DNA of 39,794 nucleotides from Nitrospinota bacterium. Its GTDB lineage: Bacteria; UBA8248. Numbering within the stretch: the stretch's first letter is position 1; the number at the start of each line of letters is the position of its first letter. Location: assembly GCA_030754595.1 (NCBI GenBank), contig JASLZZ010000118.1, positions 1 through 39,794 of the forward strand. Direction: 5' to 3'. The position numbers were made by a program, and so were the translations under genes. This document shows, piece by piece, positions 16,561 through 29,493 of this stretch. Below the pieces are notes generated by a model. That model was not told where the DNA came from, made no database searches, and saw only the letters and a list, made by a program, of their open reading frames with translations.

Positions 16561-19500
16561 ATGGCTTTGAAAAAATTCTTCGGGAAAAAAAAGCGAGGAC
16601 GACTGGGACTACGACGACGACATCCTCGGGCCATCCGACTCCAGCGATGGCGATGACGATGACGGATCTTCCCATTTCGAACTCGACGACAAAGACCAGG
16701 AAGTGGTCCGGGGAATCTCCATCCGCGCGCGGGCCTATGTCGATTACAACAAGCGGAAAGTCGCGACAATCCTTTCGAAACTCAACGATATCGACAAATA
16801 GATTTTTTTGATACTTCCCTCTCTTGTCCACCTCAACCTGCCCGGCGTTCCCGGTTACATCGAAGACCCCCAGCAGGTGCCGGACGGCGTTCTCGACTTC
16901 AAACCCGAGGACGACATACCCAGGCGAATCGAAAGACAGATTCCCTCCGCGAATGTCACCCTCGCCGATTTCGCCCGCCGCGTCGGAAGCAGCCCGATTT
17001 ATTCCCTGGCGGCCATGGGGAGCCTCGCCACTATCGCGCAAACCTCGAAGAGCGACTTCGATATTTGGGTATGCGTGAAAAAAGAAGAGTTCACCCTCGA
17101 AAAGATCGAGGGCCTCGCTGTCAAACTCAAGGAAATCGAAAAGTGAGCCGATAAAACGAACCGCTTCTAGTGCCATTTCTTCATCACCGACATCAACGAA
17201 GCGCGAAACAACAAATTTGGAGAATCCGACTCTAAGAGCGCGGGCTCGGCCCTGGGGAAACTTCTCAAAGAGGAATTCTTCCGGACCCATACGGTCCTCG
17301 CCGGAGCCGCCCCCTTGTGGACCGCGATGCCGCCCCACATATCCGACGAAGACTACGAGCGCTTCTCTCAGATGGCTTTCAGCCACTACACCATTAACCA
17401 TAAATCCTATATCGACCTGGGCAACGCCCAGCGAATCTCCATGGAGGAAGCCTTCGGCGCCGCCCTTTGGCAACTCAACAAGGCCCTCGGCAGCCCCTTT
17501 AAGTCGGCGATGAAGATGGGGTTAATCGAGGACTACATGGACTCGAGTTCCACCTCCTCTTTGCTGTGCGACTCCCTCAAGGAAAACATCACGGACCAGG
17601 CTGTCAAGTTCGAGGGGGATCGGACGACATTCGACTCCCTGGGGGATGGCGAGGAAATCGACTCGCACACGGATCGATTCTCTCTCGACGGCTACATGCT
17701 CATGTTCAACCGAATTCTTGAATTCTATAAACGGATGAACCGTAGCGACCTGCAGGAAATCCTGAGGCAGTGCTTCTACCTCAAGGCCGGCGATACGATT
17801 TCGGGAATCCACGATCCCCTGCGCGCCAAGAACCGCAAGAAAGACATGCTCGCCGAAATCATCGAAAGCTGGGGGTGGGAGAACGACCACATCATCGACC
17901 TGAACAACTTCAAGGTGTGGGCGTTCGACCTGAGCGTCAAGCTGGGCGGCGAGGTGAACAATTTTATCATCGAATCCTACAAGAGGCTCTCGCAAACCGG
18001 TGCGACCTCCAAGGCGATGATCAACGAAACGGACCTCACCGTTCTGGGACGAAAGCTGTTCACCTTCTATTCGAGAAAAGAGAAAAAGGTGGGTTATCTC
18101 CCGAAAACCTTCGAGGAGAGCCTTCACCAGAATCAAATAACGTTCGCCATGACCCCTTCGCGCACCGGCGGGGAGGCCTTGTGGAAGGTCTACCGTGGCT
18201 CCGTTTCGGCGACGGACCTGACCAGCGAGAAAGTCGGGGCCCAACTCCTCCGTCAGATGCGGAACCTGCCCGACCTCCTGACATGGCTGGTCATCAACGG
18301 CGTCTGGGATCGCCGGACCCAGGTCAACCTTCAGTCGCGGGAGTCGCGCCTGACCGCCGCGAATTTCCAGAATATTCTCGAATCCCTAGGCGATTTTTTC
18401 CCGCCGATCGACGTGGGCCACCTCCCTAACAACGATCTGATCAAGGACTCCCAGATCAGGAAGCTATACGCGATCGTCAACCTCGGCGACACCAGCCATA
18501 GCCAAGGAATTCACCGGGTCGATCTGGTTCACCGGACTTCGTGGGGAGAAATGTACACCGAGCGCCCCTCCGGAAAAGTAGACGACATGGGCGCCATGGC
18601 GTTTTGCCTGGACCGCCTGCCCTATTCCGATGCGGGGAAGGGCCCCTCCCTGAAAGTGTATGTTCCCACCGGAAAGATCTGTGTCGCCGCGGGAAGAAAA
18701 ATCTTCACGGACTTCGAGAATGTTCTCCAGGGGATCGCCACCTTTTTTCACGCATCCCCCCTCCCTCCGCTCACCCAACGCATTTTCCTGTTCAAGGGGG
18801 AACAGGGAGTCATCACCGCCTCTTGGAACGGCAAAGAAACCCAAACCAGCAAATTCTCCACGTTCGAGGAATTTTTCAAAAACGGGAACACGGCCAGCTC
18901 ATCCGCGACGAGAACGGCCTGGCCTCCTCGGCCACGGAGTTGCTCGCCCAGCAGGCCATCACCACGGGCCTCAAGCTCAACGAAATTCAAGTGATCATGC
19001 TCGGCGACGGCATCCGGGCCAGGGTGTACATCTCGGACGAGATGGGAAGCACGATGTGCCACAGCATCTCAAAGGAAGCCTGGCCGACCTACTCGGTCAA
19101 ACTCGGGGCCTTTTTAAGCAACGCCGCCAGCAAAATTATGGCCGAGCCCTGGCGGGCAAAAGCCAAGATGCCTCCCATCAAGTTTGCCTTCTATCATGTT
19201 GACGCCACCGGCACCGGCCCGAACCAGTATTCTCTCGTCGATGTCACCATGAAATACCTTCAGGCCATCGAAAACAGGGAGGGCGCTCCGGGTCAGGTCA
19301 CTTTTTCGGAAATGAAAACGAAGGACGGAAAGCGGGCCCTCGTTTTCGATATCGACGGGGAGAAAATCACCAGCCTCAAGCACGGCAGCGGTGTTTTTGC
19401 CGCAGTGGCGGCCCACTGCCACGCGCACCAGAAAGCCGCCGGTTCCATTTCTCTCGCGTATCTCTCCCTCCCCCTGGACTTCCGAAAGAAAAACTGCCCC

Positions 19501-19584
19501 CGGGGCGCGAAGACCTATCACTTCCTCGCCTACAAAAATCTACTCGAGCGGAAGCTGAACGAGCCGCTGAAAACGCTCAAGTAG
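16561..19584 (+). pseudogene. cyaA: Class I adenylate cyclase, ~1007 aa when reconstructed, disrupted
   Basis: LP.LVHLN.P..PGY, MGSLATIAQTSKSDFDIWVC (GS..DxD nucleotidyltransferase motif), HFF, GSA...LLKEEF.RT..LAG..PLW, GAALWQLNKAL.SPFKS..K. Lesions: +1 shift in A8 at 16585-16592, TAG 16799, TGA 17144, TAG 17168, -1 shift near A5 at 18878-18882. Confidence 0.85.
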
Positions 19585-23281: not shown

Positions 23282-25030
23282 ATGGAAAACAAAAAATTCA
23301 AGGTCCGCCTGCTGGAGTGGCTCCATCACTTCGGCGCCGACGAGGAGACGATCTTCTATTTCCTCACAATCCTCGTCGGCTTCGTCGCCGGACTCGCCGC
23401 CGTCGCGTTTCATCTCACCCTGGGCCTGATACACGAAATTTCCTTCGGCTCCCGCGACCTTTCGGAAGTTCTGCGCCCCTGGTATCTCGTTCCGCTCATC
23501 CCGGCCGGGGGCGCCCTCGTCGCCGCCCTGATACTCCGCGCGGTGCCCGAGGCGCGGGGAAGCGGCATCCCCCAGACGAAGATCGCCTACATCGTCCACA
23601 ACGGGGTCATCCCGGCGCGGGTCTGGATCGGAAAGTTTTTCATCGGCGCGCTGAACATCGGGACCGGCTCGAGCTTGGGCCGGGAGGGGCCGACGGTCCA
23701 AATCTGCGCGGGAATCGCCAGCTGGCTCGGCCAGACGTTCTCGCTCGGCCGCACGAGCATACAATCGCTGGTCCCCGTGGGCGCGGCGGCGGGCCTGGCC
23801 GCCGCATTCAACACCCCCATCGCCGCCGTCACCTTCACCCTCGAAGAGTTGGTCGGCGACCTCAACGCCCGCGTCCTCGGCGCCATCGTGGTCGCCTCGA
23901 TCACGGCCTCGGTCGTCACCCGCGTCCTCCTCGGGGACAACCCGGCCTTTCTCGTCCCCGCCTACTCGCTCGTCTCCTACTGGGAGCTGATTCCCTACGC
24001 CGCCGTCGGGGTGGTGTGCGCGGGAATCGGCGTAATCTTCAAGCGCGCGCTGCTCTTTACCAGGGGCCACTGGCTCGCGCTTTCGGGCGGCCGCGCCGTC
24101 GCCGCCGCCGCCCTGGGCGGGCTGGCCGTGGGCGTGATCGGAATCTGGTTCCCCCAGGTCTTCGCCGTGGGCTACCCCTGGGTCACAAAAGCGCTCACCG
24201 AGGGCTATACGTTCTGGTTCTTCCTCGCCCTGCTGGCGCTCAAGCTGTGCGCGACGACGATATCCTACGGGACGGGCTCGTCGGGCGGCATCTTCGCGCC
24301 CACGCTGTTCATGGGCGCGATGGCCGGCGGCTCGGTCGCCGCGGTCGCCGATTTTTTCTTCCCCGAACTCGTGCTCGGCCCCGGGGTGTACGCCCTCGTC
24401 GGCATGGGCGCCGCCTTCGCCGCCGTCGTCGGCGCCCCGATGACCTCGGTCATCATGATTTTCGAGTTGACCCAGGACTACCACATCATCCTCGCCCTCA
24501 TGGTCGCCAACACGATCTCCTACACCCTCGCCCGGCGCTGGGACCCCGAGCCGCTCTACAGCTCCCTCTCCACCCAGGAGGGCGTTCAGTTGCCCAACCA
24601 CGAGACCGAGCACCTGCTGCACGAAATCCATGTGGCAGACGCGATGATCACGGATGTGAAGACGATGGGGGCGAACGTCACGGTGAAAGATGCGATCGAG
24701 CGGATCGAGGAGATCGGGTTCACGGGCCTCCCGGTCATGAACGCCGCCGGCCGCATGGCCGGAATCGTGAGCGAGTCGGACCTGCGGCAGGCTCAGGGCG
24801 CGGGCCGGGAGAATGAAGCGGTGATCGAGGCCGCCACGACGAGCTACGTCATCCACGCCCACCCGGACCAATCCCTTGATTCGGCCATGGCCAAGATCGG
24901 CGCCCGGCAGATATCGCGCCTCCCCGTCGTCAGCCGGGAGGACCCGGCCCTCCTGCTCGGAATCATTACGGTCGAGGACGTGATGAACGCCTTTGGGGAG
25001 GCGCTCGCCAAGCTTCACCCGGAAGAGTAG
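23282..25030 (+). CDS. ClC-family Cl-/H+ antiporter with C-terminal CBS pair
   Basis: GSGIP, GREGP (gating Glu), AFNTPIAA..F.LEE (proton Glu), GGIFAP; CBS domains in the last ~130 aa. Confidence 0.93.
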   Translation: MENKKFKVRLLEWLHHFGADEETIFYFLTILVGFVAGLAAVAFHLTLGLIHEISFGSRDLSEVLRPWYLVPLIPAGGALVAALILRAVPEARGSGIPQTKIAYIVHNGVIPARVWIGKFFIGALNIGTGSSLGREGPTVQICAGIASWLGQTFSLGRTSIQSLVPVGAAAGLAAAFNTPIAAVTFTLEELVGDLNARVLGAIVVASITASVVTRVLLGDNPAFLVPAYSLVSYWELIPYAAVGVVCAGIGVIFKRALLFTRGHWLALSGGRAVAAAALGGLAVGVIGIWFPQVFAVGYPWVTKALTEGYTFWFFLALLALKLCATTISYGTGSSGGIFAPTLFMGAMAGGSVAAVADFFFPELVLGPGVYALVGMGAAFAAVVGAPMTSVIMIFELTQDYHIILALMVANTISYTLARRWDPEPLYSSLSTQEGVQLPNHETEHLLHEIHVADAMITDVKTMGANVTVKDAIERIEEIGFTGLPVMNAAGRMAGIVSESDLRQAQGAGRENEAVIEAATTSYVIHAHPDQSLDSAMAKIGARQISRLPVVSREDPALLLGIITVEDVMNAFGEALAKLHPEE

Positions 25031-26197: not shown

Positions 26198-26887
26198 ATG
26201 ACGCCCGGTTTGCCCGGAAGGCTTCCCTATAACGGCCAGCCCCGTTGGTTCAAGGCGCTTTGCGGGGCCTTCTTCCGGATGGCCTTCGGCGCGTGCAGCG
26301 TCCGGGGAACCGAACTAATCCCCGCCGAGGGGCCGCTCATCATCGCCTCGACCCACCGGAGTTATATCGATCCGATCGTCCTGGGCGCATTCATCCCCCG
26401 CCCCGTCTTTTTCATGGCCAAGATCGAGCTTTTCAGGAACCGCGCCTTCGCCGCCGTGATCAGGGGTTTCGGGTCGTTTCCCGTCGACCCGGAAATAGCG
26501 CTGGGCTCTACCTTCCGCACGGCGGTGGGCCTCCTGCAACAGGGCGAGGCCGTCGTCATCTTTCCGGAGGGGGGGATCGTCGATTCCCTCGGAGAGAATG
26601 GTTACAAGGAAGGCGTGGGACTCCTGTCCTCCCTGACGGGAGCGCCCGTCGTTCCGATCTACCTTGAGGATACGAACACGCTGTTCAGCTGGCCGGCGGG
26701 CCCGACGCGCCGGAGCCGGATGGCGTTTTGGGCGGGAGGGCCTATCGATCCGCCCGAGGAACGGGGCCGGGAGGGCCGGAACCAGATCGCCGAAAGGGTG
26801 GAGGCCGCCCTCGAGGAGATGAACCGGGAGTTTAGGGCCGGGGACCCTCCCGGGGGCGAAGCGCCCGGCCGGGCTGAGTCACCCTAA
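26198..26887 (+). CDS. 1-acyl-sn-glycerol-3-phosphate acyltransferase (PlsC family)
   Basis: HRSYID (HxxxxD), FMAK.ELF, IFPEG, PVVP. Confidence 0.88.
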   Translation: MTPGLPGRLPYNGQPRWFKALCGAFFRMAFGACSVRGTELIPAEGPLIIASTHRSYIDPIVLGAFIPRPVFFMAKIELFRNRAFAAVIRGFGSFPVDPEIALGSTFRTAVGLLQQGEAVVIFPEGGIVDSLGENGYKEGVGLLSSLTGAPVVPIYLEDTNTLFSWPAGPTRRSRMAFWAGGPIDPPEERGREGRNQIAERVEAALEEMNREFRAGDPPGGEAPGRAESP

Positions 26888-27046
26888 TAGAGGCCGTTGA
26901 GCCGGCCGGGGCCGGGGGCCCACCCTGGGGCGAGTCGCCCTTCCGGGGGCGCCGTGTTACTCCTAAGAGACGCGGCTATCATCCGGCCTCTTGTTTCGCA
27001 TCCGGCTTTACATTTTGAATCAAGGTTTTTCGAAAGGGAGCGAAGA

Positions 27047-27793
27047 ATGCCCATCCGTTTCGATTTCAGCGGGCGCAAGGTGATCGTCACCGGGGCCGCC
27101 GGGGACATCGGGAGCAAGATACTCGGCGGCTTCCTCGAGGCGGGGGCGCGGGTTTTCGCCACCGACCGCGCGGGCGAGCGCCTTGACGCCCTCGAGGGCC
27201 CCGAGGACCGCCTCATGAAATCGGGATGCGATCTGACCGATGTGGCCGCGCTGAGAGAAGAGCTCAGCGGAGCCCTCGAATGGCTCGGCGGGTGCGATGT
27301 CCTTGTCAACGTGGCGGGCTACATGCCCATCCGCGAGACGCTGGGGCTGACCGAGGAGGACTGGTCGGACGTTCTGGGCGTCAACCTCCTGGCCCCCTAC
27401 TTCGCCATCCAGGAGACCGTCGAGGCCCTCAAGGCCTCCCCCTCGGGCCGCATCATCAGCTTCGCCTCCATCGCCGGAAAAATGGGCGGCATCGGACCCA
27501 ACATCCACTACTCGGCGGCGAAGGCTGGCCTGCTCGCGATGACGTTCAACCTCGCCCGCGAACTCGCCAAGACGGGCATCACCGTGAACTGCGTTCTTCC
27601 CGGCCCGGCGGACACCGGGCTCCATTTCGAATCGCCGCCCGAGATGCTCGCCAACGCGGCCAGGGCGCACCCCCTGGGCCGCCTCACCGTGCCGGACGAC
27701 GTATGGCCGGCGGTTCTCTTTTTGGCCAGCGAGGAGGCGGGCCACATCAACGGCGAGGCGCTGGACGTGAACGGCGGCTTCTGGACCGACTAA
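27047..27793 (+). CDS. SDR family oxidoreductase
   Basis: TGAAGDIG, LVNVAG, YSAAK, VN...PG, VNGG. ATG 27047 after GGGAG. Confidence 0.92.
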   Translation: MPIRFDFSGRKVIVTGAAGDIGSKILGGFLEAGARVFATDRAGERLDALEGPEDRLMKSGCDLTDVAALREELSGALEWLGGCDVLVNVAGYMPIRETLGLTEEDWSDVLGVNLLAPYFAIQETVEALKASPSGRIISFASIAGKMGGIGPNIHYSAAKAGLLAMTFNLARELAKTGITVNCVLPGPADTGLHFESPPEMLANAARAHPLGRLTVPDDVWPAVLFLASEEAGHINGEALDVNGGFWTD

Positions 27794-27839
27794 CGGCTCA
27801 ACTTTCGACTAACGGTTCACCTTTAGCGGAGGATCTTTT

Positions 27840-28679
27840 ATGAACGCCGACAATCCGAAAGGCTATGAAAATCCCGATTTGCTATGGACGCCCGCCCAGC
27901 TCAATGAGCGGATGGGCGATCCGAACCTGCGGATCATCGACACCCGGCCCGGCGAGCGCTTCGCCATGGGCCACATCCCCGGCGCGCGGCATTTCAACGT
28001 TTATGCGATCAACTGCGACGACTCGGACGAGGCCCCGTTGATATCGTTTCTCAGGATGTGGGCCTTCCTCCTCGGAAACCGCGGGGTGTCGTTCGAAAAC
28101 ACGATTGTTTTCTACGACGACAGGGTCGGGAACACCTGCGTCCGCGGGTTCTGGTTCCTCGAGCTCTTTGGCCACGGGGATGTCCACGTACTCGACGGCG
28201 GCTACGGCGGATGGGAGCGGGCCGGGCTGGCGACAACGCGGGACTCCGAGCCGCTCAAGGCCGCGAATTTCGAATTTAATTTACAGCGCGACCGCATCGC
28301 CACCTACAAGGACGTGCTCGCCGCCATCGAGGACGATGACCACGTGCTCCTCGACACCCGGACCGAGGGCGAGTGGCTGGGCACCGAGGCCCGGGCCAAG
28401 AGAGGGGGCGCACTGCCCGGCGCGGTCTGGCAGGAGTGGCTCGCCCATCTCACCCCGGAGGGGGAGATGAAACCGGCATCGGAACTCAGGGCGCAGTTCG
28501 AGGCCATCGGGGTCACGCCTGAAAAAGAGGTGACCGCCTACTGACAGACGGGCTACCGTGCGGCGCACGGTTATCTCGCCCTCAGGCTCCTGGGCTACAC
28601 AAAGGTGCGCAACTATATGAGTTCGTGGAAGGAATGGGGCAACCGGGAGGGGATGCCCATCGAGATTCCGTCCCGGTAA
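27840..28679 (+). CDS. Two-domain rhodanese/sulfurtransferase (SseA/TST-like), probable selenoprotein (Sec at TGA 28542-28544)
   Basis: IIDTR, GHIPGA, LDGG...W, LLDTR..E. After the TGA the frame continues [27 protein letters not shown] to TAA 28679. The TGA sits exactly at the catalytic Cys of the Y-C-x-x-G-x-R loop. Confidence 0.88.
28541..28585 (+). promoter_or_regulatory. Bacterial SECIS-like hairpin
   Basis: Upper stem ACCGTGC(28555-61)/GCACGGT(28565-71) with a GGC apical loop starting 17 nt after the UGA. Lower pairings GGGC/GCCC and CTGA/TCAG. Confidence 0.7.
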
Positions 28680-29046
28680 ATTGCCGTCCCAATAAAGTAT
28701 TGTTTTAAAATCTATTAGCTGGTTCCTGCGCCAGATTCCAACCGGAGCATTCGGTACCGTTTCGGGCGAAAATGCGGAAATTCCCCCGCGCCCGGAAAGC
28801 CCGAAAAAAAAACCCGCATTCGCAGAATAAAACCCCCGCCGGTTTCTTCCAGGTATACGGCTCTTTTTTTGTTGAGATCGCCCGGAATCGATATTCCCTG
28901 ATGCCGGGGCCTATTTCTCAACAAAATAGCCGTTCTCAATTTCGATGAGCGTTTACCGGAAAGACCTATTTCACCAACGGGACGAAATCGGTGCGGAAGA
29001 CCGAAAGATCCCTCAGCGCCAGGCGGCTACTCTCCTGGAGGAGACA

Positions 29047-29493
29047 ATGTTCATGAAAAGGTTTCGCGTGATACTCGCACTAGCTCTTATCCTCGGACTG
29101 GGGACAGCTGGCTCGGCCACCGCCGCGCCCAAGCTCAACCTCGGCGCCGCCAGCAACAACGGCGGCATGATCGTCTTCGCGGGCGTGGGCCGGAGCATTT
29201 TCGCCAAGCACGGCATCGACGCCAAGGTGGTCGTCCGCAACACGGGTGCCCAGCACACCAAGTCGCTCAAGGCCGACCAGATAGATTTCGCCCCCGCCGC
29301 CTTCACCAACCTGCCCGCCGCCCTTGAGCGCGGCATCAAGGTGCGCGGCGTCGTCGGCTACGTGGGCGGCTCCTACTGGAAGCTCACCACCGACGGCATG
29401 GTCGGCATCGCCGTTCGCCCCGGCAGGGGGATCACCTCCATCGGCCGGGATCCCCCCCCGGTGCCGGGATCATTCCGCCCGTTTGGCATATGA
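29047..29493 (+). pseudogene. Truncated ABC transporter substrate-binding protein (SsuA/THI5/NMT1-like)
   Basis: SD GGAGG, signal peptide, IFAKHGID, LKADQIDFA, GIAVRPGRGITSI. Family-like sequence stops abruptly at ~29442, where 'DLKGK' would be expected. Only ~150 aa and no permease nearby. Confidence 0.7.

Follow-up and report, generated by a model that had tools for sequence, protein, structure and literature searches.

A predicted tandem rhodanese sulfurtransferase with selenocysteine at the catalytic position in a Nitrospinota bacterium

The contig JASLZZ010000118.1, part of the genome assembly GCA_030754595.1 of a Nitrospinota bacterium (GTDB lineage UBA8248), carries at positions 27840-28679 a gene for a tandem rhodanese sulfurtransferase in which selenocysteine (Sec) is predicted to replace the catalytic cysteine (Cys). 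The whole 39,794-nt stretch is hereafter called the window, and we put the probability that this is a genuine selenoprotein gene at roughly 0.9. Sec-containing proteins of the rhodanese type have been predicted since 2004-2005, and the gene belongs to this already predicted kind because of its UxxG motif and its COG2897-type architecture, so the family as such is not new. The evidence comes from the reading frame and the modelled structure of the product, from the conservation of the TGA codon across a bacterial family, from an RNA hairpin embedded in the codons of the active-site loop, and from the Sec machinery of the source genome.

An initial annotation of the window had noted that the open reading frame (ORF) 27840-28544 closes at ...EVTAY-TGA, and that sulfurtransferase sequence continues for 44 codons beyond it. 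Translation and Pfam bear this out, with the same frame remaining open through 28545-28676 up to a TAA. When the TGA is read as Sec (U), the translated product has 279 residues with U at position 235, and this read-through protein is matched twice by the Pfam family PF00581 (Rhodanese, E 4.9e-32); Pfam, the structure model and its fold matches agree on two rhodanese domains in one chain. The GC content of third codon positions (GC3) is 0.84 before the TGA vs 0.82 after it, and overall GC is 0.46 after the TAA. Exactly 234 amino acids, ending in ...TAY, is the length of 25 of the 120 database relatives listed (e.g. P0002, P0004 and P0006). These entries are Sec forms that were cut at the UGA by gene callers; three of the 25 carry names, two being called thiosulfate/3-mercaptopyruvate sulfurtransferase and one plain sulfurtransferase.

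The in-frame TGA had also been placed at the catalytic Cys position, and alignment to known structures agrees with this placement. Residue 235 stands opposite the Cys of HCQTHHRS (chain residue 230) in the alignment to PDB 1e0c, the rhodanese RhdA of Azotobacter vinelandii, and we take this chain residue to be the catalytic Cys230 of that enzyme; it is aligned to the active-site-loop Cys of PDB 1uar, a rhodanese of Thermus thermophilus, as well. Both alignments (E 1e-39 for 1e0c and 1e-37 for 1uar) extend to residues 274-276. The nucleophile, here Sec and not Cys, opens a six-residue loop, U235-QTGYR, in the C-terminal domain, which is aligned to CQTHHR of 1e0c. The N-terminal domain, in contrast to the C-terminal one, is presumably inactive, since the segment fyDDrvg, opposite vyDDeggg of 1e0c, has an Asp-Asp pair at the position where a catalytic loop would begin. 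An AlphaFold2 model of the read-through product, for which 48 homologs were used, has a mean predicted local distance difference test score (pLDDT) of 95.6 and a predicted template modeling score (pTM) of 0.93, and its best fold matches are 1uar (template modeling score, TM, 0.88) and 1e0c (TM 0.86), at 30-31% identity. The model runs from a strand (residues 230-234) into a loop beginning with residue 235, after which come a helix (239-250), a strand (256-259) and a second helix (263-268), and its geometry is strand-loop-helix, as in a rhodanese active site. According to this model, a product stopping at residue 234 would be without the active site and would miss a quarter of the catalytic domain.

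The TGA is conserved among close relatives. The read-through protein was searched against 61 genomes (the source genome and 60 relatives), 27 of which hold an ortholog with exactly one in-frame TGA; these orthologs share 72-100% identity and all come from the same family, where they span four genera. In the alignment of the extracted sequences, the TGAs of all 27 fall in one column, and the 10 residues directly after it are invariant. One further ortholog (in G030) ends at a contig edge at residue 198, and was excluded from this judgement. A comparison of TGA with TGC/TGT among homologs had been proposed as a check on the Sec assignment, and it sets the 27 close orthologs apart from relatives at 71-73% identity and below. 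Orthologs free of stops are found in three genomes (G010, G005 and G006; 71-73% identity) and have TGC at the Sec column, as does a paralog in G001, and the codon is TGT or TGC in four more divergent forms, giving a Cys codon in 8 of the 8 Cys-form relatives from genomes. The 94 full-length homologs among the 120 database relatives listed all have Cys there, in the pattern C-x-TGYRSAHAY.

Selection on the protein sequence extends past the TGA. Pooled Nei-Gojobori estimates for the 27 Sec-form sequences give a ratio of nonsynonymous to synonymous substitution (dN/dS) of 0.17 for codons 1-234, with proportions of synonymous (pS) and nonsynonymous (pN) differences of 0.48 and 0.12, and a ratio of 0.12 for codons 245-274 (pS 0.55, pN 0.11). 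The codons 3' of the TGA are under purifying selection, and a decaying pseudogene tail is excluded by the low downstream dN/dS, by a GC3 held at 0.82 and by a drop in GC that comes only after the TAA. As the TGA occupies the same column in all 27 TGA-bearing orthologs and GC3 is alike on both sides of it, its position ahead of an open frame is more than chance.

A hairpin 3' of the TGA was likewise part of the initial annotation, and we located it at 28555-28571. The element, ACCGUGC-GGC-GCACGGU, begins 10 nt 3' of the TGA and has a perfect 7-bp stem, with its GGC triloop at nucleotides +21 to +23 counted from the U of the UGA (17-nt spacing); the 17-nt hairpin folds at -9.7 kcal/mol. A published model of the bacterial Sec insertion sequence (SECIS) gives, in the legend of its Fig. 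2, a loop of 3-9 nt, a stem of 4-16 bp, a G in the first two loop positions, a distance of 16-37 nt from the UGA and a minimum free energy of at most -7.5 kcal/mol (PMC13188914), and the loop, stem, spacing and folding energy found here fall within every one of these bounds.

We built the case for this element on frozen synonymous sites and on the contrast between Sec and Cys forms, instead of on covariation. Across codons 236-244, pS is 0.07 vs 0.48-0.55 on the flanks, and a single codon is used by all 27 sequences at positions 236, 238, 239, 241, 242 and 243, with two to six in use from 245 onward. Over the whole gene, mean codon entropy is lowest in the 9-codon windows that begin at residues 233-236 (0.12-0.15 vs a gene mean of 0.78), and no value as low came up in 100000 random draws of nine codons for invariant residues. 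The homologous 17 nt of the eight Cys forms have folding energies of 0 to -2.9 kcal/mol, and the hairpin is absent from all eight. Where the Cys forms have RSAHA, the Sec clade has RAAHG, and a reading of the codons shows that the replacements TCG->GCG and GCC->GGT (S241A and A244G) supply three of the seven stem pairs. Because two amino acid replacements create these pairs, the protein sequence of the active-site loop is apparently adjusted to build the RNA element.

The genome has the means to insert Sec. A check for selA, selB, selC and selD had been suggested, and all four are present in the source genome (138 contigs, 96.9% complete), with scores of 551.8 bits for selA, 364.5 for selB, 345 for selD and 73.6 for tRNA-Sec, each above its curated cut-off; ARAGORN also reports a tRNA-SeC with anticodon tca. 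Within the family, selA is found in 39 of 41 genomes, and the two misses are 67% and 79% complete. The selD gene itself has an in-frame TGA (contig C16, TGA position 24570), with U at the canonical GGUGSK site (KAGG-U-GSK), and in its hairpin, GGUCC-GGA-GGACC, the triloop occupies +21 to +23, as far from the UGA as that of the rhodanese gene. This gene was found by homology and lies outside the tighter of two hairpin filters that we ran. The broader filter, genome-wide, was discarded as a selenoprotein finder, its 262 candidates not being specific, and the tighter one left 22 candidates. Pfam on seven of these gave four GrdB-type genes and three genes without a family, and the latter look like chance. 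Two of the four are GrdB homologs (Pfam GRDB, 389 and 455 bits) with the motif T-U-GT[GS]TRSGA, and two are shorter GrdB-like genes with V-U-PLC; all four have an in-frame TGA. The GGN triloop stands at +22 in all four GrdB-type genes, which is a matter of consistency and not independent support, as they were selected by a filter requiring such a loop. Selenoproteins of the glycine/sarcosine/betaine-reductase type are an observation of their own in this marine genome, whose relatives are labelled Nitrospinota. According to the BSepDB paper, metagenome-assembled genomes (MAGs) of NCBI-Nitrospinota (GTDB UBA8248) are among the selenoprotein-richest bacteria, with 48-54 genes, a statement that is not tied to this particular genome.

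A single origin of the Sec form is suggested by a tree of 73 proteins, comprising the 27 Sec forms, the 8 Cys forms from genomes and 38 full-length database homologs (270-300 amino acids, among P0003-P0060; the truncated 234-residue entries and lower-ranked matches were excluded), which was computed by a quick search with the Sec column masked. The 27 Sec forms make up one clade, with a support of 100 in the Shimodaira-Hasegawa-like approximate likelihood ratio test (SH-aLRT), and this clade is nested among Cys forms, so that one state change is needed. With Cys paralogs of 45-50% identity as outgroup, the tree reads as a single Cys-to-Sec change in the ancestor of the four genera. Two copies, L076 and L080, are found in one relative, and the second (L080:3001-3823) matches in two overlapping pieces in different frames, which suggests a frameshift or a sequencing error. 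Separately, another tandem rhodanese shares about 30% identity with this one. Its catalytic codon is TGA (LVLY-U-RLSHRAS) in five genomes, all from a single sister genus (loci L084-L088, in G027, G025, G028, G011 and G029), and encodes Cys (YCRLSHRA) in the source genome (L093, contig C27:18263-19078) and in G010. Judging by these codons, the Cys-to-Sec change seems to have occurred in two different rhodaneses of this bacterial family.

The locus is also seen in independent sequence data. The window is nearly complete in 14 metagenome runs, drawn from ten of the 13 studies counted, and of these, seven runs from four studies are possible sources of the assembly itself. A 1606-nt contig from one independent metagenome run matches 27238-28845 with 0 base differences. 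Short contigs from RNA libraries are exact at 27835-28004, 28342-28489 and 28605-28755, and another matches the upstream neighbour, a gene of the short-chain dehydrogenase/reductase (SDR) family, at 27474-27688; these hint, weakly, that the gene is transcribed on either side of the UGA.

Several observations weigh against reading the gene as a selenoprotein, or against parts of that reading. The identity of residue 235 as Sec is predicted here from sequence, and not read from protein. The 75-nt region around the hairpin folds at -25.4 kcal/mol, which equals dinucleotide shuffles (z-score 0.00), so stability alone is no evidence in this GC-rich DNA. RNAalifold on the 27 sequences found 0 compensatory pairs, as the stem hardly varies, and there are stem mismatches, a C-A at pair 24-32 in two sequences and an A-C at pair 20-36 in two others. 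A search of Rfam with the interval 28400-28750 (E up to 10) returned no SECIS family, the three matches being chance ones (snoRNA, viral), and no curated NCBIfam model scores above its cut-off for the rhodanese protein, the best being that of 3-mercaptopyruvate sulfurtransferase (3-MST) at 127.4 bits vs 250. The RNA-library contigs cover fragments of the gene only, and such libraries can contain DNA. Finally, the substrate, the acceptor and the links to the SDR and to a transporter are putative, and the transporter is truncated in the window. The initial annotation had added the caveat that nonsense lesions exist elsewhere in the window; the sole lesion found nearby is the truncated transporter gene, and the caveat does not weaken the case.

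Alternative explanations fare less well than Sec insertion. In bacteria, release factor 2 is a competitor of Sec insertion, and without selenium the gene would yield only the truncated form, so the 234-residue protein could be the main product, with Sec insertion a minor or conditional event, e.g. a selenium-dependent switch. That protein would lack the active-site loop together with the two helices and the strand that follow it in the model, and would be unlikely to fold or act, and selection on the 30 downstream codons is as strong as upstream; we regard this account as very unlikely. Decoding of the UGA as another residue, be it by near-cognate tRNAs (giving Trp, Cys or Gly) or because the codon is reassigned across the lineage, would likewise keep the downstream frame under selection, and the inserted residue cannot be told from the letters of the gene. 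However, 9 of the 27 TGA-bearing orthologs use TGA as their genuine terminator, so the codon has not been reassigned, and a SECIS-type hairpin with frozen synonymous sites at the canonical distance, a full Sec machinery and a position at the catalytic Cys, a typical site of Sec/Cys exchange, make such a reading extremely improbable. There is next to no chance of a pseudogene, with a nonsense mutation of the catalytic Cys codon (TGC/TGT to TGA) and a decaying frame behind it: one base separates TGA from TGC, a neighbouring gene is truncated in the window and database gene calls stop at the TGA, but the TGA is kept across orthologs of four genera, the downstream dN/dS is low at a normal pS, and the Sec forms make up one well-supported clade.

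Sec rhodaneses have appeared in earlier surveys. A selenoprotein described as 'Rhodanese-related sulfurtransferase, COG2897' is listed with 3 genes from the Sargasso Sea (PMC1088965), and 'Sulfurtransferase COG2897' is listed with 3 genes from Olavius symbionts (PMC1976440) and 1 gene from GOS (PMC2398784), while a 2026 review distinguishes five rhodanese-like selenoprotein forms, two of them with a UxxG motif. By motif and description, our gene matches Sulfurtransferase COG2897 / form 4, with which it shares Sec, the UxxG motif (here U-Q-T-G) and a function assigned by homology. The earlier COG2897 Sec members came from ocean-surface and worm-symbiont metagenomes; unlike them, the clade described here belongs to a defined bacterial family, goes back to one apparent Cys-to-Sec change and comes with a defined SECIS and an SDR gene as its conserved partner. 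Within the literature searched, to the extent that it was available, we found neither a biochemical study of a Sec rhodanese nor a description of this clade.

Among rhodaneses with Cys, RhdA and the Thermus thermophilus enzyme share with our predicted protein the two-domain fold and an inactive N-terminal domain, the latter presumed in our case. The RhdA loop CQTHHR and the U-Q-T-x-x-R found here are alike, the catalytic residue opening a six-residue loop before a helix in both, and the differences lie in Sec for Cys and in QTGYRA vs QTHHRS. The 3-MST SseA (NF008557; 1urh, E 2.1e-29) has the same tandem architecture and is the top NCBIfam match, but an identity as 3-MST was rejected on its score, which is about half the cut-off. 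The loop motif of 3-MST, which we take to be CG[ST]GVT, is a pattern that the loop of the rhodanese gene does not have. Identities as rhodanese_LYCAU (NF041203, 32.1 vs a cut-off of 115) and as TsoB (NF045694, 17.2 vs 805) were rejected as well; both have a Sec rhodanese domain, as here, but the former is a single domain with CxU and the latter a rhodanese/DsbD fusion, and architecture and Sec position differ from ours. The hairpin resembles the bacterial SECIS model typified by E. coli fdhF in being a coding-region hairpin soon after the UGA with a G-rich apical loop. It differs in that its triloop, GGN, is very short and sits on a perfect, GC-rich stem of 7 bp, a form that recurs in the selD and GrdB-type genes.

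The coordinates of the gene, its parts, its neighbours and the GrdB-type genes are collected in Table 1.

Table 1. Positions of the predicted Sec rhodanese gene and its elements, of neighbouring genes in the window, and of GrdB-type genes on other contigs of the source genome
Feature	Position	Strand	Basis or remark
SDR-family oxidoreductase gene, FabG-like	27047..27793	+	Pfam adh_short_C2, E 1.1e-43
Shine-Dalgarno-like GGAGGA	27828..27833	+	Read from sequence; 6 nt 5' of ATG 27840
Predicted selenoprotein gene (whole), tandem rhodanese sulfurtransferase	27840..28679	+	279 codons including Sec235, plus TAA
N-terminal rhodanese domain	27888..28220	+	Residues 17-127, best Pfam stretch; Asp-Asp (YDDRVG) at catalytic-loop start
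C-terminal catalytic rhodanese domain	28302..28655	+	About residues 155-272; approximate boundaries from structure model
Predicted Sec codon UGA, residue 235, first of loop U-Q-T-G-Y-R-A	28542..28544	+	Ortholog conservation; 1e0c alignment
Predicted SECIS upper stem-loop, 7-bp stem ACCGUGC/GCACGGU, triloop GGC at 28562-28564	28555..28571	+	Folding; frozen synonymous sites
True stop TAA	28677..28679	+	Translation; lower-GC (0.46) spacer after TAA
Truncated SsuA-like ABC substrate-binding protein gene	28945..29493	+	Residues 15-146 of a 352-residue relative left
GrdB-type gene	C18:13623-15014	-	In-frame TGA and GGN-triloop hairpin
GrdB-type gene	C66:19782-21164	-	In-frame TGA and GGN-triloop hairpin
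GrdB-type gene	C108:6702-7727	-	In-frame TGA and GGN-triloop hairpin
GrdB-type gene	C109:5206-6231	+	In-frame TGA and GGN-triloop hairpin

The rhodanese gene had been described as encoded right after an SDR gene, and the latter does lie directly upstream. A specific NCBIfam name for it had to be given up, every match falling below its cut-off (best 173.7 bits vs 222). An SDR gene is directly upstream of the rhodanese in 25 of 25 related loci, and it also adjoins two of the four Cys forms checked, so the SDR-rhodanese pair is apparently older than the Sec change. Downstream, a gene for an SsuA-like substrate-binding protein is present in 14 of the 25 loci; the protein of a relative scores 113.1 bits against SsuA_fam, below the cut-off of 163.5. 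A complete ATP-binding cassette (ABC) ATPase gene follows the SsuA-like gene in L065 and L059, both relatives that were read far enough, and only its start is seen in L027, where the locus ends. The window has no such ATPase after 28945-29493, whereas the same-genus genome G001 has a 338-residue protein and the ATPase, and the truncation is either a deletion or a mis-join of the MAG contig near 29450-29620. The conserved SDR and, in relatives, the SsuA-like ABC importer are a hint, from gene content, of organosulfur metabolism. A scan for promoters and terminators across 26800-29100 gave 0 promoter-like sites, and its 3 terminator-like sites compare with 2.7 expected. Elsewhere in the window, at 17315-19584 on the forward strand, a 559-residue ORF matches positions 65-340 of a 601-position class-I adenylate cyclase profile, and an overlapping 347-residue ORF in another frame (18541-19584) has no family match; this may be a frameshifted or diverged gene.

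Our proposal for how the gene is expressed and what its product does is as follows. SelB, with Sec-tRNA(Sec), would bind the hairpin whose GGC triloop lies 17 nt after the UGA, and the UGA would then be decoded as Sec235 and not as a stop, allowing the ribosome to go on through the loop (U-QTGYRA), the helix and the last strand and helix to the TAA. The enzyme would work like a rhodanese of the thiosulfate type, with Sec235 accepting sulfane sulfur (or selenium) as an Se-S (or Se-Se) intermediate and handing it to an acceptor. Its probable partners are the conserved SDR encoded upstream and, in relatives, the SsuA-like ABC importer. We know of no natural rhodanese in which an enzyme-bound selenopersulfide or perselenide intermediate has been characterised. 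A more speculative and, in our view, doubtful extension is that Sec rhodanese, SDR and (in relatives) importer make up a single selenium-dependent module, which would handle an imported organosulfur or thiosulfate-like compound, or selenium traffic, via a selenopersulfide or perselenide.

For annotation, the consequence is that Sec forms cut to 234 residues lose the whole active site, and metabolic reconstructions of these marine bacteria carry a dead-looking enzyme in their place. For experiment, this clade provides naturally matched Sec and Cys enzymes, 71-73% identical, that can be compared directly. For the evolution of selenoproteins, it would represent an unusually clean natural case of a Cys enzyme turning into a selenoenzyme, in which two replacements (S241A and A244G) appear to build the SECIS stem within the codons of the active-site loop, and about ten codons are then synonymously frozen. 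If the proposed module were true, the repeated Cys-to-Sec change in two rhodaneses would mark a lineage-specific chemical need in these marine bacteria.

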